Part shown: positions 4,444 through 62,325 of the stretch, one piece after another | Position numbering within the stretch: position 1 is the stretch's first letter | Layout of the letters: each line of letters starts with the position of its first letter | Assembly: GCA_964016885.1 (NCBI GenBank) | Contig: OZ024740.1 | Location: 40,424,001 to 40,488,000, forward strand | From: Eledone cirrhosa | Taxonomy: Eukaryota | Length of the DNA stretch: 64,000 nt | Reading direction: 5' to 3' | Position numbers and translations under genes: made by a program | Notes under the pieces: model-generated | Told to the model about the DNA's origin: nothing | What the model saw: the letters and a program-made list of their open reading frames with translations, nothing else | Database searches by the model: none

Positions 4444-6825
4444 TCATCATCATCATCAGGTTTAGCGTCCGTGTTCCACGCTTGCATGGGTTTGGACGGG
4501 GGTTTTCCCACTTGAGGCAAGGGTGGTTGTCTTGCTCGCATAGGACTGTCTGGCGGGTTTTCTACAGTTGGATGCCCTTCCTAACACCAACCACATTTAC
4601 AGTGTGGGGCTGGGAGGTTTTTACTGTGTTGCCTACACGGCCACATTACAGCGTGGACTGTCTGGCGGGTTTTCTACAGCTGGATGCCCTTCCTAACACC
4701 AACCACATTTACAGTGTGGGGCTGGGAGGTTTTTACCGTGTTGCCTACACGGCCACATTTACAGCGTGGACTGTGTGTTTTTTTGTCGTGACACCTACAC
4801 GATCTCATTTGTTTCGGCCTGGATGTTGTGGGACCAACATAACTTTACATTGAAAGGGGCGGTGTGGATGGGGTGGAGGTGGTGGGACGGGGGTGTGTTT
4901 TGATAGAGATGCCTACTGACTATAGTAGGTTTTTACTTTGTATTTAGGTAAGGCGGGTCTTCTCTATTACTGAGTACCGCCAAAGGTCTCGGTCCAGTGA
5001 CATTGTCTTGGTGAGGTGTAAGCGTGTGAGGTCGGAATTTATCAGCTCGTCCCATGTTTTTCTGGGTCTGCCTACTCCGTGGCTACCGTCTATCTTTATT
5101 GCCCTGCACTTTGTTATACAGCTTTGCCCTGCACTTTGTTATACAGCTGTCGTCTTTCATGCGCATCACGTGACCGTACCAACGTAGCCTTCTCTCGAGT
5201 AAACAACATCTGATCCCTCTTATTTCTAATTTTTTCCTTAGTTCGTTTATGCTTTGCCGTTCACGTATATTACTATTGCACATCCAGCGGAGCATGCAAG
5301 CTTCGTTCCTCTCTAGTCTGCGTATATCCTCTGCACACAATGCCCAGGTCTCACTGCCATGCAGCATTGCTGTTCGTATGCAGGCATCGTATAACCTGCC
5401 TTTCATTTTTAGGGAGAACCCTCTAGCGGCTAATAGTGGTATAAGCTCTTTGAACTTTTTCCATCCAGTTCTGACTCTAGCTACTGTACTTTCAGAGCAC
5501 CCTCCCCCACTGCTGATTTTGTCACCCAGGTAACGGAAGCTGTCCACTATTTCTATAGAACCCTCTGCGCAGTTGAAGGAGCTAGTATTTTGTGGGCACT
5601 TGCTGCTACTTATTGCACCAGAGCACCGGCCACATGTAAAATCTATGTTCTTAGTTAGCTTACCTGTGATCCCACTACATATTTTATGCACCCATACTTT
5701 GCATTTGGGACATAAAATGGAGTTTCTACCTACGCCTTTCCTACACACTGAGCATGGCCATTTCCCAGATGGGACTGCCGCCTTATTTTCTTTCCTACAA
5801 ACTAGAACTTTAGTCTTAGCCAGGTTAATTTTAAGGCCTTTTGATTCTAGGCCGTGCTTCCATGTTTGGAATTTCTTCTCTAGTTCGGTCATTGATTCAG
5901 CTATGAGCGTTAGATCATCTGCGTATAGGAGTTCCCATGGGCAGCCGGTCTTGAACTCCTCTGTTATAGCCTGAAGGGCAATAATAAATAGTAGGGGGCT
6001 AAGAACAGAGCCCTGATGGACACCAACTTTTACGCTAAACTCTTCACTATATTCGTTGTTAATTCTAACCTTACTGACTGTTTCTTTATACATGGCTTGT
6101 ACAGCTCTCACAAGCCATTCGTCAACACCTAGTTTTCTAAGAGACCACCAGATAATGGAACGGGGGACTCTGTCGAAGGCTTTCTCCAAGTCGACGAAAG
6201 CTAAGTATAGGGGTTTACTTTTAGCTAGGTACTTCTCCTGTAGTTGTCGTACAATGAAAAGAGCGTCTGTGGTACTTTTGCCTGACACAAACCCGAACTG
6301 CATTTCATCTAGATCAATTCTCTCTCTGATTAGTTGCGCTATTACTTTTTCCGTGACCTTCATGACCTGGTCGATTAATTTAATGCCTCTATAGTTACTC
6401 CTATCTAGGGCATCTCCTTTTCCCTTATAACAGTTAACGATGATGCTGCTACGCCAGTCCTTCGGAACAACCCCATTCTGTACGACTTGGTTAACTATCC
6501 GGGTGACCATGGTGTGTCCCACTGAACCAGATGCCTTCAGCATCTCAGCAACTATTTCCGAAGGACCAGCCGCCTTACCCGTCTTCATATCTTTGATTGC
6601 CTTGCTTATTGTACTACCCTGGACTAACACTGCTGGTCCCTCTATTGGGTCGATGTGGGGGAGACTGTCTTTCTCCCATTTGTTCTCCTCATTTAGAAGC
6701 CTTTCGTAGTGACACTTCCAAGCTACCTTCTTAGCGTCGGTGATGGCAAGTATGCCATCATCGTTAAGTACACACTTCTCTCCGACAATATCACGGTTTT
6801 CCTTGACACATTGCCTGGCAATCCT
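4442..6825 (-). mobile_element. RTE-clade LINE (PHD-RT family), 5'-truncated
   Basis: Open RT frame 5083-~6825 (NYRGIKL, QFGF, VDLEKAFD, YADD, PHD finger) and (GAT)n tail at 4442-4458. TSD-like tacac(c/t)cactcat at both ends. Internal tandem duplications at ~4545-4760 and 5099-5147. Confidence 0.93.
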
Positions 6826-7632
6826 ACACTCACTCATATATAGTCCAAATACCTTTATACAAAAACTAAACCTCACAATAAAAATGATAAAAGACTGCAA
6901 GGATTGGGGCTATGTTGTGCTGGTGAGGACCTGGCCTACAGCTGACAATGTGGCCTGATTTATCCATGTCCACCCCGTACCTATTTTGCTACTGCCCCCT
7001 CAAAAGCCACAAGACTCTCTCACTATTGTACTCTAGTAGCCACTCTCATTAACTCTTATGCACCCCACCCATGCCCCCTATGTATTCATCCATTAGCTGA
7101 TGTCTTCTCCCCACCAAAAAACCCTTTAGATGCCCTCACTATCGCACCCTAGTAGCTACTCTCTGCCTCTCACCAATGCCCCCTCCATTATCACCCCTTA
7201 GCTATTCTTTCCATCCGTTTATGGCAGAGAGTTCTCATCACCATAAAAAAGGGGGAGAGATCAGTCGTGCCACAGTATGGCTAACTCTCTAGTGTTGGTG
7301 ATCTACACGATAAATGCACATAGTACATGCTGTAAAGTGGTTTGGGAGGACCCTTCAGTTGTGTCAAATACATAACAACCACTCTTGCACTTGGTAGAAC
7401 ACAAGATCATATGTAAACAAGATGCAGATTCCTGGCCTATATGGGAGGTCAGTAGCCCAGCTTTAGTACTGACTTGGTCTATGTAGACCCATCCAACCCT
7501 TTCTAGCAGGGAAAATAGATGTTAAAACAATGATGATGGTGATGATGATTCCTTCATATATATAGTCCAAATTAACCCTTTTGTGACCATATTTCTAACA
7601 AGATTATACTGCTTTTGTGTTTTAACCATTAA

Positions 7633-8895: not shown

Positions 8896-8983
8896 TTCAG
8901 TAAAGTCATCTGGCTATTTCTTCAGAGAAGGAAATAATCAAAGAACAAAATAACAGTTTTAATTTATATCAATCTACACTCTT

Positions 8984-10602
8984 TTGTCGACTTGGAGAAA
9001 GCCTTCGACAGAGTCCCCCGTTCCATTATCTGGTGGTCTCTTAGAAAACTAGGTGTTGATGAATGGCTTGTGAGAGCTATACAAGCCATGTATAAAGAAA
9101 CAGTCAGCAAGGTTAGAATTAACAACGAATATAGTGAAGAGTTTAGCGTAAAAGTTGGTGTTCATCAGGGCTCCGTTCTTAGCCCCCTACTATTTATTAT
9201 TGCTCTTCAGGCTATAACAGTGGAGTTCAAGACCGGCTGACCATGGAAACTCCTATACGCAGATGATCTAACGCTCATAGCTGAATCAATGGCTGAACTA
9301 GAGAAGAAATTTCAAACATGGAAGCATGGCCTAGATCCAAAAGGCCTTAAAATTAACCTGTCTAAGACTAAAGTTCTAGTTTGTAGGAAGGAAAATAGGG
9401 CACCGGTCCCATCCGGGAAATGGCCATGCTCAGTGTGTAGGAAAGGAGTAGGTAGAAACTCGATTTTATGTCCCAAATGCAAAGTATGGGTGCATAAAAG
9501 ATGTAGTGGGATCACAGGTAAGCTAACTAAGAACATAGATTTTATATGTGGCCGGTGCTCTGGTGCAATAAGTAGCAGCAAGTGCCCACAAAATACTAGC
9601 TCTTTCAACTGCGCAGATGGTTCTATAGAAATAGTGGACAGCTTCCGTTACCTGGGTGACAAAATCAGCAGTGGGGGAGGGTGCTCTGAAAGTACAGTAG
9701 CTAGAGTCAGAACTGGATGGAAAAAGTTCAGAGAGCTTATACCACTATTAGCCGCTAAAGGGTTCTCCCTAAAAATGAAAGGCAGGCTGTATGATGCCTG
9801 CATATGAACAGCAATGTTACATGGCAGTGAGACCTGGGCATTGTGTGCAGAGGATATATGCAGACTGGAGAGGAACGAAGCTTGCATGCTCCGCTGGATG
9901 TGTAATAGTAATATACGTGAACGGCAAAGCATAAATGAACTAAGGGAGAAATTAGAAATAAGAGGGATCAGATGTTGTTTACTCGAGAGAAGAATACGTT
10001 GGTATGGTCACGTGATGCGCATGAAAGACGACAGCTGTATAAAAAAGTGCAGGGCAATAAAAGTAGACGGTAGCCACGGAGTAGGCAGACCCAGAAAAAC
10101 CTGGGACGACTTGATAAATTCCGACCTCACACACTTACACCTCTCCAAGACAATGTCACTGGACCGAGATCTTTGGCGCTACACAGTAATAGAGAAGACC
10201 CGCCTTACCTAAGTACAAAGTGAAACCTACTACAGTTAGTAGGCACCTCTAACAAAATACACCCCCGTCCCACTACCCCCACCCCATCCACACCACCCCT
10301 TTCGATGTAAAGTTATGTTGGTACTACAACATCCAGTCCGAAACATTTGAGGTCATGTAGGTGTCATGACAAAAAAACACACAGTCCACGCTGTAATGTG
10401 GCCGTGTAGGTAACACGGTAAAAACCTCCCAGTCCACACTGTAACGTGGTTGGTGTTAGGAAGGGCATCCAGCCGTAGAAAACCCGCCAGACAGTCCTAT
10501 GCGAGCAAGACAACCACTCTTGCCTCAAGTGGGAAAACTCCCGTCCAAACCCATGCAAGCGTAGAAGATGGACGTTAAACGATGATGATGATGATGATGA
10601 TG
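8984..10602 (+). mobile_element. RTE-clade LINE (PHD-RT family), 5'-truncated
   Basis: Starts at FVDLEKAFD, with YADD, PHD finger 9421-9560, GRPRKTW, two premature TGA stops and a (GAT)n tail at 10581-10602. Confidence 0.93.
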
Positions 10603-11015
10603 ACTCTACTATACTGTCATCAAGAAACTCAATCTACACACCTACCCACACATACAACCTCCACTATATTTACACACACTTACAACCACTTATAATCTCC
10701 ACACATCCACTCACCCAACCTCTACTTCATCTCCATAATCACACACACTTACAACCTCCACACCCACACAACACCCACGCACCATCACACAATCTATTCC
10801 TAATTAGACTGTCTACAATACACCACACTTAACTGTATTAGACTGTCTACTAACTCCACTAAAACTTTGGTTATTGCAATCCACCCACTCTTTGGACATG
10901 AGAAATATTACTAAGACCCAGCAATATTATATAACTATCATAACTAACACCCAGCCATATTATATAATTATTATAACTACTATATTACTAACACCCTGCT
11001 AATATTAAATTAACA

Positions 11016-11203: not shown

Positions 11204-11534
11204 ATATTAAATTAACAGCCTAATAGCCAGCAAAATTTTTAAGTAACTGTCAACCACTTTCTTGTGAAAATAAATTTATACTTCACATATATACATTGAA
11301 TGCTTTCTCAAGGTTTTAATGTACATCTACTCTCAGGTCTTGACTAATCACTCCCACCCTCATTAATTTTTCAGATTATTCCCCCCGCTGCCACTTATTA
11401 AATTTTGATAATCAATCCCTGGCAAAATTTTATTGTAAGTGATTCATATTGATACAGCAACTGGAGAATCTAATTTTATTTTACATTTAAAAAAATTACA
11501 AAAAATCTCATATTTACAAACGTACACTATACAA

Positions 11535-11565
<31 letters not shown>

Positions 11566-11570
11566 CATAC

Positions 11571-12180
11571 ATGGTGGCTGCCAACTCGTTTTCGAGTACG
11601 GCCACTACTTTATATCCATGTAGGAGAACCCTTACCGATGCAATGAACGAGTGTGACTTTTAGTCCAGCCAGCGACTTGAAAACTCTGGTACAAACACTA
11701 CACTTGTGACAATTATTGACACATAGTGCTGGGCCCATGGTACCATGTGACGACAAGTGCAGAGAGATCTCCAGATATAAAGCAATGCCTGTGCCGTGAA
11801 GCTTTTATAGTGAACAAAGGCACTGCACAAAGCCAGTCCCACTCTCTTAACCAAGATGATATTTACCAAAAAGAAGAACAAGTCAACATCATTGGATACC
11901 ATCAGAGTTGCAGGTGTTATATCAGAGTTTTCCTTCTCCTAAAATTCTACCTTGACAAAGGCTAAGGGGTCATCTCTCCCGGTGATTTTGGATGGCCATT
12001 GACTCTTAAGAGCTCCTTTGCCCTTTGACAGGTTTTGTTTTTCGTCCTGCACGATGTCCAAAGTCACCCTCCTCACCAAGAAACCTTGGTGGGGTTGCCA
12101 GTTTAGTCGCCAACGACCCGACCATGAGACAGGTTGTACTGGGATACATGTTACCAGTAGCACCAACTGGTGACCTGACA
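11571..12180 (-). mobile_element. ~610-bp non-autonomous RTE-derived retroelement, copy 1 (full length)
   Basis: Five near-identical copies in the window, with an (ATGT)n 3' tail. The 3' terminus and a C2H2 remnant resemble the RTE at 62185-64000. No pol III A/B boxes seen. Confidence 0.85.
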
Positions 12181-12198
12181 TACATACATACATACATA

Positions 12199-12835
12199 CA
12201 TCATCATCAACGTTTAACGTCCGTGTTCCACGCTTGCATGGGTTTGGACGGGGGTTTTCCCACTTGAGGCAAGAGTGACTGTCTTGCTCGCATAGGACTG
12301 TCTGGCAGGTTTTCTACAGTTGGATGCCCTTCCTAACACCAACCACATTTAAAGTGTGGGTTTGGGAGGTTTTTACCGTGTTGCCTACACGGCCACATTA
12401 CAGCGTGGACTGTGTGTTTTTTTGTTGTGACACCTACACGATCTCATTTGTTTCGGCCTGGATGGTGTGGCACCAACATAACTTTACATAGAAGGGGCCG
12501 GTGTGGATGGGGTGGGGGTGGTGGAACGGGGGTGTATTTTGTTAGAGATGCCTACTGACTGTAGTAGGTTTTACTATGTATTTAGGTAAGGCGGGTCTTC
12601 TCTATTACTGAGTACCGCCAAAGGTCTCGGTCCAGTGACATTGTCTTGGAGAGGTGTAAGTGTGTGAGGTCGGAGTTTATCAGCTCGTCCCAGGTTTTTC
12701 TAGGTCTGCCTATTCCGTGGCTACCGTCTATCTTTATTGCCCTGCACTTTGTTATACAGCTATCAACTTTCATGCGCATCACGTGTCCATACCAACGTAG
12801 CCTTCTCTCGAGTAAACAACATCTGATCCCTCTTA
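12199..12835 (-). mobile_element. RTE-clade LINE (PHD-RT family), short 3' fragment
   Basis: IRGIRCCLLERRLRWYGHV...GRPRKTW plus 3' UTR and (GAT)n tail, flanked by (CATA)n. Confidence 0.9.
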
Positions 12836-12858
12836 TACATACATACATACATACATAC

Positions 12859-13469
12859 ATGGTGGCTGCCAACTCGTTTTCGAGTATGGCCACTACTTTA
12901 TATCCATGTAGGAGAACCCCTACCGATGCGCTGAACGAGTGTGACTTTTTAGTCCAGCCAGCGACTTGAAAACTCTGGTACAAACACTACACTTGTGACA
13001 ATTATTGACACATAGTGCTGGGCCCATGGTACCACGTGACGACAAGTGCAGAGAGATCTCCAGATATAAAGCAATGCCTGTGCCGTGAAGCTTTTATAGT
13101 GAGTAAAGGCACTGCACAAAGCCAGTCCCACTCTCTTAACCAAGATGATATTTATCAAAAAGAAGAACAAGTCAACATCATTGGATACCATCAGGGTTGC
13201 AGGTGTTATATCAGAGTTTTCCTTCTCCTAGAATTCTGCCTTGACAAAGGCTAAGGGGTCATCTCTCCCAGTGATTTTGGATGGCCATTGACTCTTAAGA
13301 GCTCCTTTGCCCTTTGACAGGTTTTGTTTTTAGTCCTGCAGGATGTCCAAAGTCACCCTCCTCACCAAGAAACCTTGGTGGGGTTGCCAGTTTAGTCGCC
13401 AACGACCCGACCATGAGACAGGTTGTACTGGGATACATGTTACCAGTAGCACCAACTGGTGACCTGACA
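12859..13469 (-). mobile_element. Non-autonomous RTE-derived element, copy 2 (full length)
   Basis: Colinear with 11571-12180 and has the same 5' end (tgtcaggtcaccag). Confidence 0.85.
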
Positions 13470-13475
13470 TAATAC

Positions 13476-13890
13476 ATGGTGGCTGCCAACTCGTTTTCGA
13501 GTACGGCCACTACTTTATATCCATGTAGGAGAACCACTACCGATGCGCTGAACGAATGTGACTTTTTAGTCCAGCCAGCGACTTGAAAACTCTGGTACAA
13601 ACACTACACTTGTGACAATTATTGACACATAGTGCTGGGCCCATGGTACCATGTGATAACGAGTGCAGAGAGATATCCAGATATAAAGCAATGCCTGTGC
13701 TGTGAAGCTTTTATAGTGAGCAAAGGCACTGCACAAAGCCAGTCCCACTCTCTTAACCAAGATGATATTTACCAAAAAGAACAAGTCAACATCATTGGAT
13801 ACCATCAGGGTTGCAGGTGTTATATCAGAGTTTTCCTTCTCCTAGAATTCTGCCTTGACAAAGGCTAAGGGGTCATCTCTCCCGGATGAC
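13476..13890 (-). mobile_element. Non-autonomous RTE-derived element, copy 3 (5'-truncated)
   Basis: Matches the 3' ~415 bp of copy 1. Confidence 0.85.
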
Positions 13891-13924
13891 ATAATACATA
13901 CATACATACATACATACATACATA

Positions 13925-16900
13925 AATGGCGACCGTTGTGGTCAGTGTCGGAAAATCGGACATGTGTAATTACGGCTTACATGAAGGCAACATACCATAT
14001 ATTGGAAAAAGTTGAGCTTCATTACGCGGTAAGATTACATGCAATAATTCTACATAAGTGTTTGAACTGTAAGTGTGTTGTAAAACACCTATTTATATGA
14101 ACGATACATACACTTATGATATATGAACGATACATACACTTTAACATAAATGCAACGTTGTTATATTACATTTATAAAGAAATATACAAGTAACGTTTTC
14201 GATTCAGAAACAAAAATATAAGTGTTTGAACTGTGAATAGGTTGTAGAACACCTATTTATATGAATGATACATAAACTTTAACATATAAATACCGCGTTG
14301 TTATATTATATTACATTCATAAAGGAATATACTAAGTAACGGTTCTTTTTGTTCTCGATTCAAACGATTCAAGAACGTTTAAAACACAGTTGTAGAATTA
14401 AAAACTAACTGAAAAGAAATATTACCCAAGCTGTGAATAACTTTAAATTTGATTCTGACAGAACTTTGTCGTAACTTTTAAAGAAGATCATCGACTATTT
14501 TGAAAAATAAATACGAAATATTAGTGAATAGACGAACTCATCATGGCAAAAAGTACAAGTCTCCTTCGACCAAATCGCAACTACAACCGTTGTATACAGT
14601 GGAGCTACGAGCTTAACAAAGTATTATATGAAGCATACAAACAATCTGAACCCCAAAAGTTCGGTTTTATGCAAAAGCTAAAAACTTTATGGAACTCCAA
14701 ACACCCAGAATTAGACTTTTCTCCAAAGCATTTAAATGAACAGGCAAAACATATCATTAGATGTAAATTGATACATCTAACGGAATTGAGTGATACTACA
14801 AATACAGCCCTTGTAGACAACCACCCCACCTCCACTGACAGACAAAGAGAATGGCCAGCTAAATCTAACAGTGAACAGCTCACCAACAATTTTGCTGAAA
14901 TCCATCCCACTTCCACTGAAGAACAGTGAGAAAGGTCAGCTGACTCTAGTAGTAATTGTCACCACATCAACAACGAGGCTGAAATTCATGCCTCTACTGA
15001 ACAAACAGAGCACCAAAAACTTGTGGGCACCCTACAAGTGATATGGAACAATATGTTTCAAGAGATACACAGCCTTAATGTGAGTGACAGACCATACAAC
15101 ACTAGAATCAGTAAAGAACCCACTAAATTGGAATTGGAAGCGGTGAACGAAATAGCTGGCAATTATCTGAAGGCTATACGATCTAAAGGTGTAGAAACGA
15201 CATTTGAAACGCTCAATGTTTTGTTATATGTTTCAGCTGTCACATTGCTATCATATAACACACATCTAAAACCACGCAATCAAGATACAAACAGAAAGCC
15301 TGAACCAGCGTGGATGCGAAATTTAAAAACCAAAATTTTGTCCCCGAGACGAAGTATCTCACACATCGCAGTCGTTATGAAATGCAACATAGAGAGCAAC
15401 TTCACACGACACCAGGAAGACCTAAAGAAAAAGTTAGAGAGACGATTTGGAGATACAAAATTTAAAACTTTGAACTCCAAATTACACCAGTTGAAACAAC
15501 AACTCATAGCTACAACAGAAAGACTAAAATATAAGTCAACAGCACATAAACGACAAGTGCTAAATAGATTGTTTGCCAGAGATCCTAAATCAGTTTATCG
15601 CAGCTTCGGTGGCAAAAGCTCAATCCCTGTAAACGACACCCCTTCAAAAGAACAGGTTGAGAGCTACTGGAGATCTGTATGGGAAACGGATGACGGATTC
15701 AACAGACAAGCTAAAAGAACTGGAACAGGACTACTGCCAACATGTCCAGACAAAACAATATGACATAGATGGGTCAATACTGGAAACAGCTCTACAGAAA
15801 ATGTCGAATAGGAAATCGCCAGGTCCAGACCTCATTACAGGATACTGGTTGAAGAATTTCACTTTCTATCGGCAAGATCTCATACGGCTGTTTACAGAAA
15901 CCATTAAGGGCACACAAGAACTGCCCAGATGGTTATCAACTGCCACTACTCTCCTCATTCCCCAAAATAGCCAAACCACCCTTGCTAAAAATTACCGCCC
16001 AATTACCTGCCAAAACATCATGTATAAATTATATACTGGGTGCCTTAACCTGTTCTTACAGGATCACTGTGCTACCAACAACATCATAACACCTGAGCAA
16101 GCTGGTGGAAAGAGGGAGGTGTGGGGTTGCATAGATCACCTACTAACTAACAAAATGATTCAGGAAAAAACAACAAAGAATCGCAGAAACATGACTGTCG
16201 TGTGGCTGGACTATCAAAAAGCATTTGATAGTGTACCTCATGGGTGGATTATTAAGGCTTTACAGTTAGCTAAAGTCCCACAACTATTGGTAGCTGCTGT
16301 TGAACGCCTGACCAAGAACTGGTACACCAATTTGATCCTTAGAGGTGAGAGGGAGCAGGTTAAGACTGATAAGATACATTACCAGAAGGGCATCTTTCAG
16401 GGTGATAGCTTGTCGGTGCTACTCTTCGTTCTCTCACTGAATCCACTATCTTACCTACTCAGGAAACAAGGTGGACAAAGAAGTGGGCCCAGAAGTATCT
16501 CCCATCTTTTCTTTGTTGATGACCTGAAGTTGTATGGGCCAAATATCAATGACATCAAGAAACAATTGGACCTTATTACACAATTTTCAACCGACATCAA
16601 AATGAAATTTGGTGAGTCCAAGTGTGCATATTTGGCAGTAAAACGTGTAAGAGCTGTGCCCTCCTCTAGAAATCTAGAGATGAACGGCCTGACAATACAA
16701 CCTCTGCAGTCAGGTGACAACTACAGATATCTTGGACAGGATGAGAATGTCAGATATGATGGACCCATAAATAAGGAGAGAACCAGAACTGAATACCTCA
16801 GAAGAGTAAAGAAAATATGGTCATCAGAACTGTCAGCATACAACAAATACATTGCCCACAATACTTATGCTGTGCCAATTCTAACGCCAACATTTGGCCT

Positions 16901-18111
16901 ACTGAACTGGTCATTGCAAGAACTAAGTGAGATGGATGTTAGAATTCGAAAACTTCTCAGTGTTACTGGCAACTTTAACATCAATGGTGATGTGGATAGG
17001 CTATACTTCTCACGCAAGGAAGGTGGCCGGGGTCTAAAATCAATATTAACAACATATGAGACCCGGATAGTAACACTGAAGCAACACCTTCAACAGAAGA
17101 AAAAGGTTGGCAACCATCTTGCCCAGGTTTATGAGCATGAAAAAAGAAATATCATTAGAATAGCGACTGATCTGGAGGAGAGATATGGAATAAAGCCTGA
17201 TATAAATCTCTCAGAAGATCCTATTCAATGTTCAAACAAGATAAGAAAATTGACCAATTTACAGAAAAAGTTGTGCATGGATACTTGAGGCGTAAAACAC
17301 AGACCATAGAGGGGATAAACTACTCAAAAAGCCTGGCATGGAGTTCCGACAAGTTTATGACATCACACCTTGAAGGATATCTCTATGCAATACAGGAACA
17401 AGAACTCCTTACCAAATATCTGCTGCACAAAAGAGGAGGGCCAGCAGCTGACAATAAATGTAGGCTATGTAAAACAAAGATCGAGGATGTAAGCCACATT
17501 GTTGCCAGCTGCGAAAGAATGTCATCTCGCTACTACCTCCCCATGAGACACGATGGGATAGCTAGAACCATCTGGAACGCACTTCGGAAAACAAAATTAA
17601 CAACAAACGAGGAAGAATATATCGAGACAGATGGCACTAAGGAATACTGGTGGAACCTGAAAATAAAAACTGCCACCAAATTAAAGCACAACCGGCCTGA
17701 TATTGTAGTTTGGGACCACACATTGAAAACGTGTTCTGTTGTGGAGATCAGCTGCCCACTTGATGTAAACGTTGTCAGAAAAATACAGGAGAAGGAGGAC
17801 ATCTGCAGACCATTGATGAGGAGTTTACAAATCCAGTATCCAAGATACACCTTTAGCTTCATACCCATCATTATTGGTGCTACGGGTTATATACCAACCC
17901 ACTTGGACCAAAGTATGACTGAACTTGGATTTGCGGACAAAAAGCGCAGCTCCCTAATTCATAGTCTGCAGATGGCTGCGATAGCTGGCACCTTCAAAAT
18001 TTGCAAAACATTCTTGCGATTCAAGGGATGACAATTTCTTTTCTTTTACAACCTTGCCACCAGGAAGGTGGACGGTCAAAAAAATTTACTCGAAATTAAG
18101 AGAAAGAGAAA
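13925..18111 (+). mobile_element. R4/Dong-clade RLE non-LTR retrotransposon, probably full length (family A)
   Basis: Single disrupted ORF 14543-18031 (stop at 14927, two frameshifts): N-terminal W...N..LYEAY..S.P motif, RT (SPGPD, YRPITC, DYQKAFD, GIFQGDSLS, FVDD), CCHC knuckle CRLC...H...C, RHD, and RPD...E...K endonuclease. Flanked by (CATA)n. Confidence 0.9.
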
Positions 18112-18180
18112 ACATACATACATACATGCATGCATGCATGCATGCATGCATGCATACATACATACATACATACATACATA

Positions 18181-20047
18181 CCCCTTGTCCTTTCTGCTCA
18201 AGAAATGTGAGGGATACATCATTGGCTCACAGGAGGACAGAAAAACGAACCTAACCCATAACTTCTTTGTGGACGATCTGAAACTCTATGCCAAGAACAT
18301 GGATGGGATGAAGAAAAATCTTGACCTGGTTACAACGTTCTCAAAAGATATAGGAATGGAGTTTGGCCAAGATAAATGCTCATACATGACTGTAAAGCGG
18401 GGAAAAACAACAACCCAATCTAGCAACATTGTCATCAATGGTCTAACTGTTTCACCGATATCTGATGAGGACTGCTACAGATACCTGGGGATAGATGAGA
18501 ACATATCCTATAATGGTATCTGTAATAAAGAACGCGTAACCAGGGAATACTACACCCGATTAAGAAAGATCTGGTCATCGGAACTCTCTGCGCAAAATAA
18601 AACAGTGGCTCACAATGTGTTTGCTGTGCCTGTCCTAACACCAACGTTTGGAATACTCAATTGGACGATAGATGAAATCCGAGCAGTTGATGTTGGAACT
18701 CGAAAAATACTGAACAACACCAGAAATTTCCACATCAACAGTGACATAGACCGCCTTTACTTGAAACGTAAGCAGGGAGACAGGGGCCTAACATCAGTCC
18801 AGACAACATTTGAATGTCGCATCATATCTCTCCGACAACATCTACGAACCTCGAAGCGTAGGAGCCCGCTTCTCGAGCAAGTCTATCTGCATGAAACAGA
18901 TAAGATCATGAGAGTTGGGAAGGAACTCCTTGAGAGATATTCCCTGTGTGATAATCAAAAACTCACACCCAGGGATGTCGCTCAGCAGTATCGCAGTGAA
19001 TCCATGGATGAAAAACTGCATGCCTATCAGCAAAAAATCATGCATGGATATGTTGCCAGGAAGCTCCAGAGTGAGAGTAATATAGATAAGGAAAGTAGTC
19101 TATCTTGGACCAACAACCGCTATATTGGCTCCCACTTTGAAGGATACGCTTTTGCAATCCAAGAGCAGGAGATTAGCACGAAATACCTGATTCACAAAAG
19201 AGATAGGGATGCAGGCAAAACACCTAGATGTGATAACAAGTGCAGACTCTGCAGAACTAACATCGAGGATATCACCCATGTCATCAGCAGCTGCCCAAAG
19301 ATGTCATCGCGGTACTATCTACCTATGAGGCATGATGTAGTGGCCAAAACACTGTACAATGCAGTTCGTAAAAAAGATAGCCTCGATAATAAACACATTA
19401 AAAGCTACAACAATGTGGAAGACATCCATATACATAATATGAAAGAGTACTGGTGGAATGTTCCAGTAAAAACCCCAATAAAATGCAGGCATAACAGACC
19501 AGATATTATGATATGGGACAGGGAGAAGAAAACATGCACAGTAGTGGAAATTAGCTGCCCAGCAGATGCCAATATAATATCAAAGATTAGTGAAAAGGAG
19601 AATATTTATGCAGAACTGATGAGAAATCTGCAGATACTCCACCCTACCTTCAGATTTATGCCTGTGATTATTGAGGCACTGGGATATGTTAGTAACTGCC
19701 TCAATACAAATCTTGAGAAGCTAGGCTTCACAGGAACAGAAAGAACACAACTAGTTAGGAAATTACAAGTACAATCCATTAATGGAACAGTAAAAATATG
19801 TAAAACATACCAAAAATGTTGCATCTAATAACTGCATATACACATGTACAGATACAAAGCATATACACATGCACACATACAACTCAAAACATACACATCC
19901 ATACATACAATAACATCCATATCTACACATGCATGCATGCAGACATACATAGTTGATGTTTAAATTCCAATGAGAGTCTTGTGTCTATGTTAGAAACCGA
20001 CTCTCTCTCTATTGGTAAAACTTTGTGAAATTATAAAACCAGAAGAA
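18181..20047 (+). mobile_element. R4/Dong-clade RLE non-LTR retrotransposon, 5'-truncated (family B)
   Basis: Uninterrupted frame 18182-19828: FVDD, YRYLG, CRLC...HVISSC, RHD, HNRPDIMIWD...VEISCP. (CATA)n on both sides. Confidence 0.92.
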
Positions 20048-20060
20048 CATACATACATAC

Positions 20061-20630
20061 ATGGTGGCTGCCAACTCGTTTTCGAGTATGGCCACTACTT
20101 TATATCCATGTAGGAGAACCCCTACTGATGTGCTAAACAAGTGTGACTTTTTAGTCCAGCCAGCGACTTGAAAACTCTGGTACAAACACTACACATGTGA
20201 CAATTATTGACAGTGCTAGGCCCATGGCACCAGATGACAAGTGTAGAGAGATCTCCAGATATAAAGCAATGCCTGTGCCGTGAAGCTTTTATAGTGAGCA
20301 AAGGCACTGCACAAAGCCAGTCCCACTCTCTTAACCAAGATGATATTTACCAAAAAGAAGAACACGTCAACATCATTGGATACCATCAGGGTTGCAGGTG
20401 TTATATCAGAGTTTTCCTTCTCCTAGAATTTTGCCTTGACAAAGGCTAAGGGGTCATCTCTCCAGGTGATTTTGGATGGCCATTGACTCTTAAGAGCTCC
20501 TTTGTCCTTTGACAGGTTTTGTTTTTAGTCCTGCAGGATGTCCAAAGTCACCCTCCTCACCAAAAAACCTTGGTGGGGTTGCCAGTTTAGTTGCCAACGA
20601 CCCGACCATGAGACAGGTTGTACTGGGATA
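20061..20630 (-). mobile_element. Non-autonomous RTE-derived element, copy 4 (slightly 5'-truncated)
   Basis: Colinear with copy 1 and ends in (CATA)n. Confidence 0.85.
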
Positions 20631-20664
20631 CATACATACATATGGTTGTACATACATACATACA

Positions 20665-20700
<36 letters not shown>

Positions 20701-20855
20701 TATATATAAAAATATATATATAATAATATTATTTATAGTTATGTATACACTAGTTTGGAAGAAACGATTGTCAGTAATTAAATGATATAAACATAGCTTT
20801 GATTATTTTGTAATTTATATATATATATATATATATAGTGTATGTGTATATATTA

Positions 20856-21464
20856 TGTCAGGTCACCAGTTGGTGCTATTGGTAACATGTATTCCAGTAC
20901 AACCTGTCCCATGGTCGAGTCGTTGGCGATAAACTGGCAACCCCACGAAGGTTTCTTGGTGAGGAGGGTGACTTTGGACATCCTGCAGGACTAAAAACAA
21001 AACCTGTCAAAGGGCAAAGGAGCTCTTAAGAGTCAATGGCCATCCAAAATCACCGGGAGAGATGACCCCTTAGCCTTTGTCAAGGCAGAATTCTAGGAGA
21101 AGGAAAACTCTGATATAACACCTGCAACCCTGATGGTATCCAATGATGTTGACTTGTTCTTCTTTTTGGTAAATATCATCTTAGTTAAGAGAGTGGGACT
21201 GGCTTTGTGCAGTGCCTTTGCTCACTATAAAAACTTCATGGCACAGGCATTACTTTATATCTGGAGATCTCTCTGCACTTGTCGTCACATGGTACCATGG
21301 GCCCAGCACTATGTGTCAATAATTGTCACAAGTGTAGTGTTTGTACCAGAGTTTTCAAGTCGCTGGCTGGACTAAAAAGTCACACTCGTTCAGCGCATCG
21401 GTAGGGGTTCTCCTACATGGATATAAAGTAGTGGCCGTACTCGAAAACGAGTTGGCAGCCACCA
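20856..21464 (+). mobile_element. Non-autonomous RTE-derived element, copy 5 (full length, inverted)
   Basis: Reverse complement of copy 1 with the same 5' start. Encodes a residual CSVCTRVFKSLAGLKSHTRSAH C2H2 finger. Confidence 0.85.
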
Positions 21465-21749
21465 CATATATACACACACACACATGGCAAGTGATAAATT
21501 TTTAAGCTGGATGCCTGGCTTGCAGAGAAAGCTACTTTTTCCCCAGCTGGAATATAAGAATGTAGAGCACTATAGATTGACATTCTGACCATATATACAT
21601 TACATCAGTATAATCAGGGCTCTCCTGTCAAAAGCAACAACTATAAATATTCCAAGCCAATAAGAAATCCTTTATGTCAGTGATTTACAACACTTCCCCC
21701 ATCATTTAACCCTCAGCTAGATGTATTTTGTCATTTTCCTCTCCACCTT

Positions 21750-23837: not shown

Positions 23838-26800
23838 TCTTTATTAGCCACAAGGGCGCAACAAGAAAGGGGACAATACAAAGACATGCCGGGGATTTTA
23901 CATACAGTCGTGTAAAAAATATAAAAACAAACAATTTCAACAATCGAAATCCCCAATAGGGGGGAGGCGCCACAAATGGGTTGTTTAATACCCCGTCGAT
24001 AGAACAACCCTCAACTCAAGGAGCATGTTGTGCAAGTGCTCCTTTCTTCCTTTTGCTCTCTTCCTCAACCTACAGGCTTATAAACAGAGAAGGCCCAATC
24101 ACTCGGGCCATTTTCGCTTCATTCACCCACCTTTCAGTAAATTTACTGGGGTGCAGTGCCTCTCTCTCCACCCTGATTCTCCTTCTAAAGTGATACTTAA
24201 AGAATGGAATCAATTGTTGTCCGGAGAGAAAGGCATCTGTCCTCAGTCCTCTCAACCTCGTCCACCATATAACTTCTTTCACCATAGCCACCGTACAGAG
24301 GAAAACCGCCTCTCTTTCGTTTTTGAAAGAGTCTGGCGGTTTGATCCTTACTATGGATTCGGCAGTCAACTGTATTTGTCCCATACGCGACAGCAGTTGT
24401 TCTGCATAGTTCCACAGGTCGCTTACGCCCGGGCAGTGTACAATTGCGTGCAGAACTGTTTCAATGTCCTGCGCACATCTTGGACACGTCCTCTTGGAAG
24501 GATCCCTGCCAGGGCGTCCGTGCCTGTAGATCTTGTCACGAACCGGTAGAGCTCCTCGGTAGCACTGCCAGGCCAGGGACCTCTGGAAGTTGTCCATAGG
24601 TCCCGGGCGGAAAGTCCTACCAAACATACTGGTGAGCTCATCGTCTTCGACGCCCAGAGTCTCTCCGAGCACGTCGTCGCCCTTGTAACGTACAATCCCT
24701 CTATAGAATGTCGAAGTGGAGTATCCACTGATTGCTGCGCCCGCTTGCCAGAGGACTGTGAGCGCCTGAGCGCATTCAATGTGCCAGGCGCCCATCGTTT
24801 TCGGTCTTTTCTTCACCCAGGACTGCAGCTCCGTTAGCGAGACGAGCTGTGGGAAAGCCTGTCTCACAAACGGTGCCCACACCGGTTGGGGGTCGGTGAG
24901 GAATACCTGGAGATGCCGCAGCCTCAGCGCATGTTTGCGCATCATCAGCCACGGCATTCCCAGCCCTCCGTTGGAAGGGTGCTGACAGCAGACGGATCTC
25001 CTCACCAGCGGAGCCTGCTTCTTCCACAGAAACTGGAAGAGCATGCGTTCCATCTTGGCGAGGTGTTCACGGGGACAAGGCACGACAGTCAAGCGGTAGT
25101 AGATGACGGACGCTATGAAAGTGTTCGCCACCTCCGCTCGACCTTTCAAGGACAGTTTGCACTCTGCCCACTTCTGAGTGAGTGCAAACACCTTGGCCGT
25201 GACCTCGTTCCAGTTTTTCTCCACCTGGAGGTCTGGACCGAACCAGACCCCGAGCAATTTCACCGGTCCGTCCGTCCAGCGTCCAACGACGCTGTCGGAT
25301 GTCATCGGTTTGCCTCTCCACGTACCGAGTTGCAAACCGACAGACTTGTCTGGGTTTAGTTTTGCTCCCGTCAGCGTTTCGTATTCTTTCAGTATGTTGC
25401 CGATCACCCCGATTTCCGAGGTGCTCGACACCATTACTGTCACGTCGTCGGCATAAGCCGACGCCGCTTTGCGCAGTCCCGGTTCTAGGGGGGTGCCCTG
25501 CAACAGCTCCAATTTCCGCAGTAGTGGCTCTAGAGTCAATACATACAGAATGGAGGAGAGAGGGCATCCCTGTCGAATGAAACGCGTGATTGCGAACGGC
25601 TCCGATAGGTAGCCGTTCACCTTGACCCTCGAGCAGATGCTGGTGTGCATCGCCTCGATCCATCCTCTGAACACGGGACCGAAACCGGCCGCCTTGAGAA
25701 CCGCTTCCAAGTATCGATGGTCGACCCTATCGAATGCCTTAGACTGATCCAAGTTGATCAGAGCCCCACCGAAGCCGGGTTTACTACCCACCCTCTCTAT
25801 GATGTATCGCATGAGGTGGAGGTTGTCGTGTATGGACCTGGTCGGGATTGCACACGTTTGCGCTTTCCCTACCAGGTTCTCGACGACAAGCGCCAACCTC
25901 GTCGCTAGCACCTTGGCCAAAATCTTTAACTCTGTGTTGAGCAGAGTTATGGGCCTGAAGTTGTTAATTTCGTCCCCCTTGTTCTCGTCTTTCCTGATCA
26001 GCGTTACTACGCCCTTGCCTGCAGAACTGGGAATTCTCCCGTTCTGCTGCCAATTGCAGTAGACGGCTTCGAGGACGCCAGAGAACAAGTCCGGCATGCC
26101 TATGTAAAATTCGTAGGGTAGACCATCTAGACCGGGTGACTTGCGTTTCCCGCAGCGGCCCAGAGCGTCCCGTATCTCAGTGTCCGTGATCGGTCTTTCG
26201 CAGAACTCGGCGTCCGTGTTCGAGAGACGCGGCAGGCCGTCGAGGTATGAACTAAAGTCCATTGCCCCGTTCGGCTCACCGTCGTTCTGCTCAAACAGTC
26301 GCGCAAAGTGCCGCTGAAAGGCCGCGCACATTTGCTTGGGGTCAAGTAGCACGCGTCCGTTTTGGTCTTTCAAGGACCGAATCGTGGACTTGTTGCCACT
26401 TTTTGCCTCCGCCACTCGGGCCCAGCTGACAGCTTTCGCTCCTTCGTTTCCTAGAGCACGTGTTTTGCTTCTGACCACGCAGCCTTCGTGTTTCGCATCG
26501 AAGAACTGGTCCAGTGCCGTTCTCGACGCTAACACTCTAGCCGCGTTGCCACTTCTAAGTGCCTCCTCTACCTTGGCTACTAGTTCTCTTTCTATTCTGT
26601 TTTTCTCTAAGGCTAACTCTCTGCTATACCCTATCGATTCTATTCTAATTGCTTTCTTGAGAGAGTACCACCATCTATTGTTGACGATGGCTCCCGTTAA
26701 CTGTTGCTTGACTAGTTTACTTATCCGTTCACTGTAAGCTTTACGTGCCGGCAACGACACATTCAGCTTCCAGTATCCGGGACCCTGTCTATGTATTCTA

Positions 26801-28129
26801 TCACGGTTGACTAAGCAGACGACTAACTTGTGATCTGAATAGGCAACCATGTGCATTCGTGGACAGCTTAACATATCCTTGTCCCTTTCTCTAATGAAGA
26901 ACCTATCTAAATACGATCTAGATGTCCCACTGCGGTTTACCCACGTCCACTGTGGTGCAGTCGGGAAATCCAGTCGATACCTATCGGCCAGTTGGAATTG
27001 GCCAATTAAAGTTTTGAGGCTGTTGCACCCCGCTCTACTGGGACATGCTCCCACATAGTCCCATCGTGCATCTAGGATACCATTCCAGTCCCCCACTAAA
27101 AGTAAGGAGCGAGACGTTCCCAGAAAAGACTCTAGACGCTTAAAGAAGTCTGGCCGTGATTGCGATTGCCCGGTCGGGGCATAAACGGCCACCAGTCTGA
27201 AGGCTCCACCTCCGATACTGTTCACGTCTAGGACTACCAGTCTACCCTCCGGGTCCAAGTGTACTTGCTGTACTCCGACGTCCAGGTTCTTCCGAAACAT
27301 AACAGCCACTCCACCTCCACCTCCTGGCTGACAGAGAGATGCGTAGATCTCAAAGTCGTCGAAGATGGGGGTTAGTTGCTGCCTGTTGTGGATTCTGGAC
27401 TCGGTGATGGCTATCACATCCATACTGTGTGACCTAAGGTCGTTTAAAAGTTGGCCCTGTTTCCAGGGCATCCCTAGGCCACGCACATTCACGGTTCCAA
27501 CTCGTAAACCAGCCATGTTGGTGAAGAAAAGTTGGAGAAAAAGGACGAAAGGTGCACTTACCTTTTCGTTTCCTGGAGATCGGGTTGTTCAATCTCCATT
27601 TGGGTGCTGGATGGGGTGGGGAAACCTTTCAACAGGACGCGGTTGATGGGTTTGTGGCAGGGGTTGCCCACGTCCTGTGAAAATTTAATTTTCAGGTCTT
27701 TATAGGTTTCCATAGAAACCCTTATAAGTTTAAGGTGTGGAGACGATTCTGCCTTGACGAAAGTTTTGCCCTCCGTCTCCACCTTGGGGTTTTGGGAGAT
27801 GACCTCCATCAAACTCTTGTTGTTTGTGTTGATGTATGCGTATTGTTGTTTGTGTTTTTGTTGTATTGTTTTAGTTTGTTGTTCATCTGGGAGTTTTCTT
27901 TTTATGGTGGGTGCTTGTGTTTGGGGTGGTGTTGGTGCTGGTTTTGCTGATAGGGGGGTGTTTGACTGTAGTGTTGTTTGTGTTGTTGTTCGTGTCTGTG
28001 GTTGTGTGTTGGTGTTGGTGATTGGAGTTTTGGGGGTTTTGTGGTGTCTCTTTTTTTGTTTTTTGGATTTCCGCGGTTCTCCCTCTTCTTCACTTAAAGA
28101 AGGAGAAGCAGCTTCATCCGTTATTAATC
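23838..28129 (-). mobile_element. Tx1/L1-clade LINE, truncated in ORF1, ORF2 intact
   Basis: ORF1 3' remnant at 27558-28093, ORF2 at 24070-27516, 3' UTR ending AATAAAGAA. Candidate TSD AATCAAT at 23831-23837 and 28130-28136. Confidence 0.88.
24070..27516 (-). CDS. Tx1/L1 ORF2: APE endonuclease, reverse transcriptase and C-terminal Cys/His knuckle (1148 aa)
   Basis: GTVNVRGL, ITES, VYAP, GDWN, YLDR, YSDH (EN); SPGLDG, FRPITLLN, LDQSKAFD, RQGCPLS, AYADD (RT); CPRC...H...HC. No stops. Confidence 0.95.
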   Translation of the reverse strand: MAGLRVGTVNVRGLGMPWKQGQLLNDLRSHSMDVIAITESRIHNRQQLTPIFDDFEIYASLCQPGGGGGVAVMFRKNLDVGVQQVHLDPEGRLVVLDVNSIGGGAFRLVAVYAPTGQSQSRPDFFKRLESFLGTSRSLLLVGDWNGILDARWDYVGACPSRAGCNSLKTLIGQFQLADRYRLDFPTAPQWTWVNRSGTSRSYLDRFFIRERDKDMLSCPRMHMVAYSDHKLVVCLVNRDRIHRQGPGYWKLNVSLPARKAYSERISKLVKQQLTGAIVNNRWWYSLKKAIRIESIGYSRELALEKNRIERELVAKVEEALRSGNAARVLASRTALDQFFDAKHEGCVVRSKTRALGNEGAKAVSWARVAEAKSGNKSTIRSLKDQNGRVLLDPKQMCAAFQRHFARLFEQNDGEPNGAMDFSSYLDGLPRLSNTDAEFCERPITDTEIRDALGRCGKRKSPGLDGLPYEFYIGMPDLFSGVLEAVYCNWQQNGRIPSSAGKGVVTLIRKDENKGDEINNFRPITLLNTELKILAKVLATRLALVVENLVGKAQTCAIPTRSIHDNLHLMRYIIERVGSKPGFGGALINLDQSKAFDRVDHRYLEAVLKAAGFGPVFRGWIEAMHTSICSRVKVNGYLSEPFAITRFIRQGCPLSSILYVLTLEPLLRKLELLQGTPLEPGLRKAASAYADDVTVMVSSTSEIGVIGNILKEYETLTGAKLNPDKSVGLQLGTWRGKPMTSDSVVGRWTDGPVKLLGVWFGPDLQVEKNWNEVTAKVFALTQKWAECKLSLKGRAEVANTFIASVIYYRLTVVPCPREHLAKMERMLFQFLWKKQAPLVRRSVCCQHPSNGGLGMPWLMMRKHALRLRHLQVFLTDPQPVWAPFVRQAFPQLVSLTELQSWVKKRPKTMGAWHIECAQALTVLWQAGAAISGYSTSTFYRGIVRYKGDDVLGETLGVEDDELTSMFGRTFRPGPMDNFQRSLAWQCYRGALPVRDKIYRHGRPGRDPSKRTCPRCAQDIETVLHAIVHCPGVSDLWNYAEQLLSRMGQIQLTAESIVRIKPPDSFKNEREAVFLCTVAMVKEVIWWTRLRGLRTDAFLSGQQLIPFFKYHFRRRIRVEREALHPSKFTERWVNEAKMARVIGPSLFISL

Positions 28130-37468: not shown

Positions 37469-38255
37469 GGGTGGAGTTGGTAGGTTAAATCTGTTACCTG
37501 GTTTAACAACACTACCTGATAGTTTAGGTGGAGTTGGTAGGTTAAATCTGTTACCTGGTTTAACAACACTACCCGACAGTTTAGGTGGAGTTGGTAGGTT
37601 AAATCTGTTACCTGGTTTAACAACACTACCTGATAGTTTAAGTGGAGTTGATAGGTTAAACCTGTTACCTGGTTTAACACCACTACCAGGCAGTTTAGGT
37701 GGAGTTGGTAGGTTAAATCTGTTACCTGGTTTAACAACACTACCTGATAGTTTAAGTGGCGTTGATAGGTTAAACCTGTTACCTGGTTTAACACCACTAC
37801 CAGGCAGTTTAGGTGGAGTTGGTAGGTTAAATCTGTTACCTGGTTTAACAACACTACCTGATAGTTTAGGTGGAGTTGGTAGGTTAAATCTGCTACCTGG
37901 TTTAACAACACTACCTGATAGTTTAGGTGGAGTTGGTAGGTTAAATCTGCTACCTGGTTTAACAACACTACCTGATAGTTTAGGTGGAGTTCGTAGGTTA
38001 AATCTGTTACCTGGTTTAACAACACTACCAGGTAGTTTAGGTGGAGTTGATAGGTTAAACCTGTTACTTGGTTTAACACCACTACCAGGTAGTTTAGGTG
38101 GAGTTGATAGATTAAATCTGTTACCTGGTTTAACACCACTACCAGGCAGTTTAGGTGGAGTTGGTAGGTTAAATCTGTTACCTGGTTTAACACCACTACC
38201 AGGCAGTTTGGGTGGAGTTGGTAGGTTAAATCTGTTACCTGGTTTAACAACACTA
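37469..38255. repeat. 51-bp minisatellite, about 15.5 copies
   Basis: ggtggagttggtaggttaaatctgttacctggtttaacaacactacctgatagttta in tandem. Confidence 0.95.
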
Positions 38256-38504
38256 TCTGGCCCTTGGGTGACTCAAGCAGTGTCCATTCTGTTTCAAGTA
38301 TACATGCCATGTCATTGGTTTTAGGGAACTTTCCTCCATCCCAGCAGGCTAATGAAAGGAGTCATGGGTATAGTCTCTCCCTCCCCAACTAAATAGCAAA
38401 ACAAAAAACAAGCTTATTCAAGAAAACAAGGTCCATTGTAGTAGAAACAGAAGATGAAAGGGGATACAGGATGCCTGGAAATCTTTATTCATGTCATTAC
38501 CTTT

Positions 38505-41500: not shown

Positions 41501-41620
41501 ATAACAGCACTGATCTAGACATAATACTGTCTAACAACAACAGCACTGATCTAGACATAATACTGCCTAATAACAACACTGTTGTACACATAATACTGCC
41601 TAACAACAACAGCACTGTTA
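38505..41620. repeat. 3.1-kb 30-36-bp minisatellite with two sub-domains
   Basis: Unit A (ctattgtacacataatactgcctaacaacagta) to ~39750, unit B (ctgatctagacataatactgYctaacaacaacagca, 36 bp) from 39750 to 41575, then unit A again. Confidence 0.97.
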
Positions 41621-41784
41621 CTATATAGTACCTTTGATACTGCCTAGCATTATTTTTGTTGATAGTTGTCACATATAACGAGGGATGTTCAAATTCATGA
41701 AATAGGAGACATATGAAGTCCTTGGATTGGTTGATTAACTAGGAGATTCATAGTTTCTATTCCCCCAATTGACCAGGAGTTGGA

Positions 41785-42030
41785 GGATTAACTATAGACC
41801 ACCAGACCAATGGTTAGTGGGTTAAATATAGACCACTTGACCAGTGGTTGGTGGATTAACTATTGACCACTGCTTGGTGGGTTAACTATTGACCACTGAT
41901 TAGTAGATTAACTATTGACCACTAGTTAATGGGTTAACTATTGACCAGTGGTGGGTGGTTTACTATTGACCACTGGTTGGTGTGTTAACTATTAACCATT
42001 GGCTGGTGGGTCAACTATAGACCACTAATT
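41785..42030. repeat. Diverged ~27-bp minisatellite (gggttaactattgaccactggttggt)
   Basis: About 9 imperfect copies. Confidence 0.75.
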
Positions 42031-43216
42031 GATGGTTTGGGCAATGATATAGGTTAGCTCTGGTATATATTAAGGGTTGTGGGACATTATGTGGGACAGT
42101 GGCAGTTAGCTCTGGTGTACATTAAGGGTAGTGGATGAGTCATTATTAGGGAGGTGGTGAATGATAGGGATTAGTTCTGGAGCCAACTGAGGGAAGGGTC
42201 ATTATCAGAGGGAGGCCAATGATAGTGGTTAGTTCTTGAGTACCTTGAGGGTAGTAGAAGAAACATTATCAGTGATAGAGGCCATGTCAATCTGAAGAAA
42301 CTGAAGGAATGTCTTCCTATTTGAAATGTATGAGAAGGGGAAGGAAATGTTTGAAAGAATTTTGTCAAATTTCTGTAATGTAGCTTTGGGCTATAAATCA
42401 AGCATCAAATATGAGATCTCAACTGCAATATACCTTGGTGACCTTTGATAAATCTTTATTTAGAAGTAATGGTGACATCAACCATGATATACTGGTGACT
42501 ATCAATACGGGCTCCTTAACAGAGGAATGGTGCGAAGGAAGGTATTTACAATATTGGTATAAAGATCCTTTTGGCAATGAACTCACCACCCACCCCGCCA
42601 CACGCCCCAAAAAAACAAAATAAAACAGTTGATTGGGGGGGGGAGTGAGAACTTGCATGTAATACGGTGTATGAAAGCATCTTTTGTATTTCAGATGGTA
42701 GGTAGTCTTTCAAGTGTTGTGGAGATGGTTAAATGCTATCCAGTTATTACTTTTGTTTACTAATGACCACTTCAAAGAATCTTTAACCTACTCATCATTC
42801 ATGTGAAAAAAGAATAGGTAAATAAATAAATCAGTAAAGAGAATATAAAATAAACTGATAATAAATACTAATTATATGTAAAACAGAAATCTGTATAACA
42901 AAACAAGAGTTTAAGGCCATTTTCCCTACTAAAGCAGGAGATAGGCATGTGTGACCCTATAACAAGTATCTCAATTTCCCACAATGTCTATAACCTCTTC
43001 TCACCAATCCCCTGGCTTTCATTTCCTCCACTATCATTTTTAGCAATATCATTCTTGGTTTTCCTCTTCCTCTACTTTCATCCACATTCATTTACGTCGT
43101 CCCTCTCACCCAAACACTTTCATCCTTCCTCAACACATGACCCAACCATTTCTCTTTATAAGATTCGTCACAGGGCTCTATTCCCACCATCCTCTGCAAT
43201 TCATTATTTGTCACAG

Positions 43217-62063: not shown

Positions 62064-62184
62064 CATACGTACATACGTACATACATACATACATACACAC
62101 ATACATACATACATACGTACATACATACATACATACATACATACATACATACATACATACATACATACATACATACATACATAC
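62064..62184. repeat. (CATA)n microsatellite, the 3' tail of the adjacent RTE
   Basis: About 30 units directly abutting the RTE 3' end. Confidence 0.9.
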
Positions 62185-62251
62185 ATGATGGCTGCCCCCT
62201 CGTTATCGAGTATGGCCATTGCACGAGGAGAAAGAAAAAAAAAAAAAAGAA

Positions 62252-62325
<74 letters not shown>

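Follow-up and report, generated by a model that had tools for sequence, protein, structure and literature searches.

Two families of R4/Dong-like retrotransposons target (CATA)n arrays in Eledone cirrhosa

Elements of the window and their class

Three copies of R4/Dong-like retrotransposons, belonging to two families that we call A and B, lie in a 64,000-nucleotide stretch of the Eledone cirrhosa genome (assembly GCA_964016885.1, contig OZ024740.1, positions 40,424,001 to 40,488,000 of the forward strand), which we refer to as the window and number from its first letter. All three are on the plus strand, and all are bordered on both sides by arrays of the tetranucleotide CATA. Family A is represented by a full-length copy (copy 1, 13925-18111) that encodes a Myb-like N-terminus, reverse transcriptase (RT), a CCHC motif and a restriction-like endonuclease (RLE). 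It is 97.4% identical to an intact genomic copy, and its open reading frame (ORF), from about 14543 to 18031, is interrupted by stops and frameshifts. A repeat scan places (CATA)n at its 5' flank (13889-13924) and a (CATA)n/(CATG)n array, with CATG units included, between it and the first family B copy (18112-18181). That copy (copy 2, 18182-20047) is 5'-truncated within RT, is open up to a stop at 19828, and is 97.7% identical to a near full-length genomic copy; at its 3' end the junction sequence shows a short (CATA)n array at about 20047-20062. The second family B copy (copy 3, 57860-62063) is old and decayed, and matches in three pieces at 86-88% identity. Two insertions, at 58331-59921 and about 60767-61395, interrupt it; its 5' array is short, with variant units and then about 2.5 perfect ones, and its 3' array has about 31 units (about 62063-62186, repeat scan). 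The first of the nested insertions is a decayed RT-bearing fragment with a 6-bp direct repeat at its bounds. The 3' junctions of copies 1, 2 and 3 read GAGAAAA|CATAC, GAAGAA|CATAC and CCAGAA|CATAC. A first-pass annotation of this DNA had placed, oriented and flanked the three elements in this way, with the same 3' junctions; we set the starts of copies 2 and 3 at 18182 and 57860.

The Dong-like copies share their arrays with two other kinds of element, both on the minus strand. One is a long interspersed nuclear element (LINE) that we take to be of RTE type, following the first-pass annotation and its type of sequence; its 3' half occupies 62187-64000, and its family encodes an apurinic endonuclease (APE), RT and three C-terminal C2H2 fingers. 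The other is a short non-autonomous partner of this RTE. From 11536 to 20706 the window is a single train of seven insertions in CATA arrays. It opens with an array (11536-11572, repeat scan) and a full-length partner (11573-12177; 97.5% identical to the copy at 12864-13466), followed, between two CATA arrays, by a 3' fragment of an unrelated (GAT)n-tailed retroelement (12202-12834, minus strand; matches at 310-953, 4655-5223 and 9958-10593). There follow a second full-length partner (12861-13469), a 5'-truncated one (13478-13885) that stands head-to-head with copy 1 across the array, then copy 1, an array, copy 2, the short array and a partner truncated by about 28 nt at its 5' end (20063-20633), which has a CATA array at that end too (20628-20706). 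The same repeat is thus found at the 5' ends of the window's partners and RTE as well; the RTE runs past the window edge to a (TATG)n array, beyond which lies a head-to-head family A fragment. The tail-to-tail pairs are as first described, copy 2 meeting a partner and copy 3 the RTE.

Intact family A copies carry one ORF of 1169 aa. Pfam reports RVT_1 plus a weak zf-RVT, and we find the motifs C-x2-C-x8-H-x4-C, RH, PD..E and K..xY, with the first lysine of K..KY present; the motif roles follow a passage of PMC4838377, in which that lysine is catalytic in R2Bm. The top sequence matches in PDB are R2 proteins. Pfam finds neither Myb nor C2H2 in the N-terminal region. Within that region, residues ~17-78 form three confident helices in a predicted structure and can be aligned to the N-termini of TAA-flanked and Pediculus proteins; those of the region's structure-atlas look-alikes that have an assigned family are Myb-type, at scores below 0.9 that make this a lead only. 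The nearest named protein relative is from Argonauta hians (66% identity over part of the query). In a quick 51-row RT tree, which held no named Dong, R4, HERO, NeSL or R2 sequences, A and B fall with TAA-flanked elements and Pediculus and Sitophilus proteins (SH-aLRT, a likelihood-ratio branch support, 97), away from the RTE, which served there only as an outgroup, and from L1-like outgroups. Both insect genera occur, by species name, in a published R4/Dong alignment (PMC7998251).

That the two families are divergent, as the first-pass annotation had it, holds: A and B are ~54% identical in the RT-RLE part, and their full-length references give no DNA match. Twelve family A copies, picked for intact ORFs, have a mean identity of ~99.6%, which together with the intact 1169-aa frames points to recent activity of this family. 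Family B copies found with the window copy as query are 89-94% identical to that query.

The (CATA)n target of families A and B

We collected copies from searches of the same genome (best 30 loci per search), from extended stretches, and from 80 evenly spaced 10-kb stretches of 19 large contigs (the unselected 800-kb sample). Flanks were counted over all loci of this genome, window copies included, after duplicates had been merged by junction sequence. A 3' flank was classed by the first 16 nt past the 3' end, and alignment breaks caused by internal deletions (7 in A and 5 in B) were removed before 5' junctions were counted.

The 3' flank is of CATA class in 87/95 family A and 54/59 family B copies (141/154 in total). 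Reverse polarity, a TATG-class 3' flank, occurs in 0/154, and AT-class and AAT-class flanks in 1/154 and 0/154. By chance, a CATA-class 16-mer follows 1.6% of random positions on a given strand. The same repeat stands at 5' junctions: 102/112 in family A (66 truncated and 36 full-length copies) and 29/34 in family B, a total of 131/146. The truncated copies among these are of CATA class in 91/102 cases (A 66/73, B 25/29), with truncation points spread over 62 (A) and 39 (B) distinct 5-nt bins. Since a tail cannot lie 5' of independently truncated copies, families A and B target (CATA)n, which is not their tail. The first-pass annotation had proposed this specificity, with its fixed polarity, and had named a tabulation of flanks as the check; the 5' junctions turn out to be mostly CATA rather than mostly something else.

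Two simpler accounts would dispense with a target: that (CATA)n is the elements' own tail, or that copies have passively survived in repeat-rich regions. The genome is indeed rich in microsatellites, and the family B 3' untranslated region (UTR) holds CATA-like sequence. An own tail leaves CATA at the scattered truncated 5' junctions unexplained, and we rejected it on those counts. Passive accumulation was rejected because the junctions are base-exact, because polarity is never reversed, because the far commoner (AT)n is avoided (559 (AT)n arrays and 44 (ACAT)n arrays in the 800-kb sample, ~13x), and because a third Dong-like family of the same genome, taken as a control, uses TAA: (AAT)n follows 28/33 of its 3' ends and CATA follows none. 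Taken together, these two accounts strike us as very improbable. The target specificity of families A and B is real and robust.

The elements closest to A and B in design are Dong elements (Bombyx Dong, DongAg, snail DongBg, ostracod Dong), which in passages of PMC7998251 and PMC3812793 likewise have a single ORF with a Myb/SANT-like N-terminus, RT, CCHC and RLE, insert into a microsatellite so that their sense strand is the A-rich one, and are heavily 5'-truncated. Their target is (TAA)n (PMC3812793), found in most insects, molluscs and cnidarians (PMC7998251), whereas A and B use (CATA)n. The two sources differ in that PMC3812793 lists Dong among APE elements, unlike PMC7998251. Bombyx Dong also has a reported 5' ribozyme like that of hepatitis delta virus (HDV; PMC3774820). 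For A and B, Rfam gave no ribozyme match in 11400-21600, where the only matches were microRNA-like ones to repeats, all below the gathering score; an HDV-like descriptor matched none of 10 5' ends, a TAA-flanked control included, so that the descriptor is not validated. As a separate observation, five elements, family A and four relatives from other organisms, share a short motif at their 5' start, GGACGTG or a close variant preceded by a short GC-rich segment (L336:340-400, L307:115-160, L309:110-160, L303:100-135 and L302:58-95), which may be a promoter or RNA signal.

Other retrotransposons have comparable habits. Togen, which targets (TG)n, and microsatellite-specific HERO families are of RLE type (passages of PMC4640811), although they are NeSL/HERO-related, are not grouped with Dong and use another repeat. 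Waldo (WaldoAg1, WaldoAg2, WaldoFs1; R1 clade) targets ACAY, a class that includes (ACAT)n and hence (CATA)n (PMC3812793). It is an insect element with an APE endonuclease; its enzyme being unrelated, a shared target would be convergence. The first-pass annotation knew of no described (CATA)n specificity. For R4/Dong this stands, as we found no CATA- or CTTA-specific member in the literature searched, to which Repbase, Dfam, supplements and the large RLE screen of Fell et al. 2025 did not belong and which these may list; for retrotransposons at large it does not, given the ACAY target of Waldo. A Dong-R4 expansion is reported in coleoids (PMC8967140, in passages that name no targets), and PMC13282606 reports recent activity of Dong-R4 and RTE families in Octopus vulgaris.

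The C2H2-fingered RTE and its short partner

The RTE family has an open frame of 1004 aa with Exo_endo_phos_2 (weak and partial), RVT_1 and, at the C-terminus, three C2H2 fingers. Its partner has the final ~35 nt in common with it, and also a portion of the 5' UTR (~69% for the copy at 12861-13469). LINEs of the RTE clade end in short repeats, have short non-autonomous derivatives, and are usually taken as weakly specific. The element here resembles them in joining APE and RT in one ORF and in having a short partner that has its 3' end and some of its 5' UTR; it differs in its three C-terminal fingers and in strongly favouring (ATGT)n or (AT)n at its two flanks, and the literature searched yielded no paper on such an RTE.

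In the first-pass annotation (ATGT)n, the reverse complement of (CATA)n, was the RTE's own tail. The flanks do not support this. Where RTE copies are cut short within the ORF, (TATG)n stands at 17/24 5' junctions (13/19 among loci from the RTE search alone). Partners have a TATG- or AT-class 5' flank in 65/80 copies, and a 3' flank of TATG class in 69/108 and of AT class in 22/108. The 3' flank follows the local repeat: among 92 partner copies with both flanks, 38 are TATG/TATG, 10 are AT/AT and 7 + 6 are mixed (Fisher p=0.0007). The RTE 3' ends (n=35) show 1 to 6 ATC units followed by ATGTAT (26/35) or ATATAT (5/35), so the RTE's own 3' end looks like (ATC)n. With repeats on both flanks and an opposite facing, the RTE appears to be a co-tenant rather than a builder, and we consider it likely that RTE and partner are independent users of the repeat.

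The same annotation had gone on to propose that one LINE builds the landing pads of another. On this model RTE and partner write (ATGT)n tails, and Dong-like targets come mainly from them. Tail-to-tail contacts do occur: beyond 21/120 Dong 3' arrays comes the 3' end of an RTE or partner, by a tail-detecting pattern that misses some tails; a looser count by eye gives ~34/141 in a set that includes loci found via RTE and partner searches; and the unselected sample gives 4/9, above the searched sets. The ATGTAT that follows most RTE 3' ends fits the proposal as well, as do the 9/92 partners flanked by TATG on the 3' side and by non-repeat sequence on the 5' side. However, the mirror class, TATG at the 5' flank and non-repeat at the 3' flank, is equally large (10/92), and the partner 3' flank, which is (AT)n in 22/108 copies, tracks the 5' flank. 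Head-to-head contacts, with an RTE or partner 5' junction beyond the Dong 5' array, are as common as tails (29/131; p=0.43). Among background arrays, counted from 4 units upward, a tail of this kind is just as frequent (7/50; p=0.66), and 31/50 have no such neighbour at all. The nearest relative of family B copy 3, which also holds two nested insertions, is 92% identical, and that of the adjoining RTE 99% (over the piece searched), so the RTE was probably the second arrival there. Relatives of A and B in other organisms, described below, use the same target. With tails no more frequent beside Dong-like elements than 5' contacts or than in background arrays, we rejected RTE tails as the main target source, an origin we judge improbable; in its strong form, the claim that one LINE builds another's target is unlikely.

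A softer version has more to commend it. Arrays would arise by ordinary slippage, each insertion would split and might duplicate or extend its array, and both lineages would multiply each other's targets. Many-element trains occur, 27/120 Dong 3' arrays run up to the 5' junction of another Dong copy, and long arrays are often kept on both flanks of an insertion. Against it, long arrays are simply larger targets, and target-site duplications are unreadable in perfect repeats; a search for them using variant repeat units gave 2 weak candidates only, which are not interpretable. We regard such feedback as possible, at somewhat less than even chances.

Further observations concern the RTE and its partner. 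A second short RTE derivative, made of 5' UTR and 3' end and ~90% like the RTE, also lies by (ATGT)n (L221:5367-6115, L242:2611-2916, L254:8170-8388). Several RTE copies stop at internal (ATT)n runs, in the 5' UTR (L172, L176, L183, L186, L189) or the 3' UTR (L094, L100, L103, L118), as if ATT/TAA-targeting elements insert there, which would be a case of one LINE carrying another's target. In the window, an oppositely oriented partner (20839-21472, plus strand) with an (AT)n/(GT)n-type 5' side forms a long inverted pair with 20063-20633.

Other parts of the window hold a retroelement that carries a PHD finger after its RT and ends 3' in (GAT)n (5083-6909, minus strand; related copies at 299-2309 and 8981-10603), of whose family the fragment at 12202-12834 in the CATA train is a member. 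An intact-looking 1172-aa APE-RT-zinc finger ORF, which we take to be L1/Tx1-like, lies at 24070-27588 (minus strand), with a decayed, 80%-identical relative at 51012-53864. Large tandem arrays of 57-, 36- and 26-bp units, with long open frames on both strands, fill 37470-42035.

Relatives, mechanism and meaning

Of the 34 loci found in a metagenome scan, on contigs that come from few data sets, 12 are close, at 47-53% identity. In 7 of these 12, (CATA)n or (CTTA)n borders the element in the same polarity; both ends carry an array in 3 (2 with (CATA)n, 1 with (CTTA)n), and in the other 4 (CTTA)n stands at the sole array-bearing end. None of the 12 has a TAA flank; several more distant loci do. 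We built a 21-row tree in careful mode from a subset of the 51 rows, midpoint-rooted without an outgroup. In it A, B and six metagenome loci form a clade (100/100) inside a 12-row clade (100/100), and TAA-flanked rows fall outside, at ~30-35% identity. CATA and CTTA rows are not cleanly split, B standing with CTTA rows (88/88). The second lysine of K..KY is replaced in 8/8 tetranucleotide-flanked rows and kept in the TAA rows and named insect proteins readable by the pattern; one deeper row, whose target is not known, also lacks it. The match between this change and a tetranucleotide target is a correlation among related sequences, not a cause. Separately, metagenome contig L318 holds a distant RLE element whose 3' neighbour looks like the 3' end of 18S ribosomal DNA (rDNA); this may be an rDNA-specific family.

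We consider it highly probable that A and B are R4/Dong-like elements that insert into (CATA)n in a fixed orientation, likely by means of their own protein, and that RTE and partner are likely independent users of the repeat in the opposite orientation, which also use (AT)n. This reading builds on the domain order, the repeat on both flanks (independent 5' truncations included), the fixed polarity, the separate CATA/CTTA clade and the repeats flanking RTE and partner; the nicking and priming steps are modelled on R2-type target-primed reverse transcription. The single Dong-like protein would bind the repeat, probably by its Myb-like and RLE regions, nick the (TATG)n strand and prime complementary DNA there. 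On the R2 model the nick would fall in the TATG strand, either at GTATG^T or one base further, as the A at the junction is ambiguous. The RTE would nick the opposite strand, with a looser preference, and its short (ATC)n end could pair with a target that ends in AT. Opposite nicked strands would give the opposite orientations, and repeated insertion into arrays beside earlier copies would build mixed trains.

Several points weigh against this reading. Outside the CATA class stand 13/154 3' flanks, 11 of them starting with a short or variant unit, and 15/146 5' junctions. The searched copies are best-scoring matches, in which young copies are over-represented; in the unselected 800-kb sample, where older copies are included, CATA class is found at only 7/11 5' junctions, with 2 dropped, and tail-to-tail contacts reach 4/9. 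No true empty site was recovered: at one young insertion the public contigs end at the repeat and none bridges it, and a comparison of 150 copies with the fetched loci for paralogous empty sites gave, among the matches listed, only recurring neighbour types and self-matches. Of the close metagenome loci, 5/12 have no array. Finally, named Dong and R4 references are absent from the tree.

A bolder scenario, which we hold as tentative and rather doubtful, is that a sub-lineage of R4/Dong, widespread and so far undescribed, switched from (TAA)n to C-W-T-A tetranucleotide repeats with a change in the endonuclease K..KY helix, that an RTE, having gained three C2H2 fingers, itself targets the opposite strand of this repeat, and that the two multiply each other's landing sites. 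If true, two unrelated enzymes would read one microsatellite from opposite strands.

That retrotransposons aim at microsatellites is a principle long known, and A and B are a variant of this known habit; the flanks of the C2H2-fingered element suggest that an RTE, too, can be microsatellite-directed. Described targets of the R4/Dong group are rDNA and (TAA)n, to which our results add a tetranucleotide. With TAA, CATA and CTTA, related endonuclease and Myb-like domains form a natural series for studying target change in RLE retrotransposons, two of which (TAA and CATA) occur in one genome with intact young copies.

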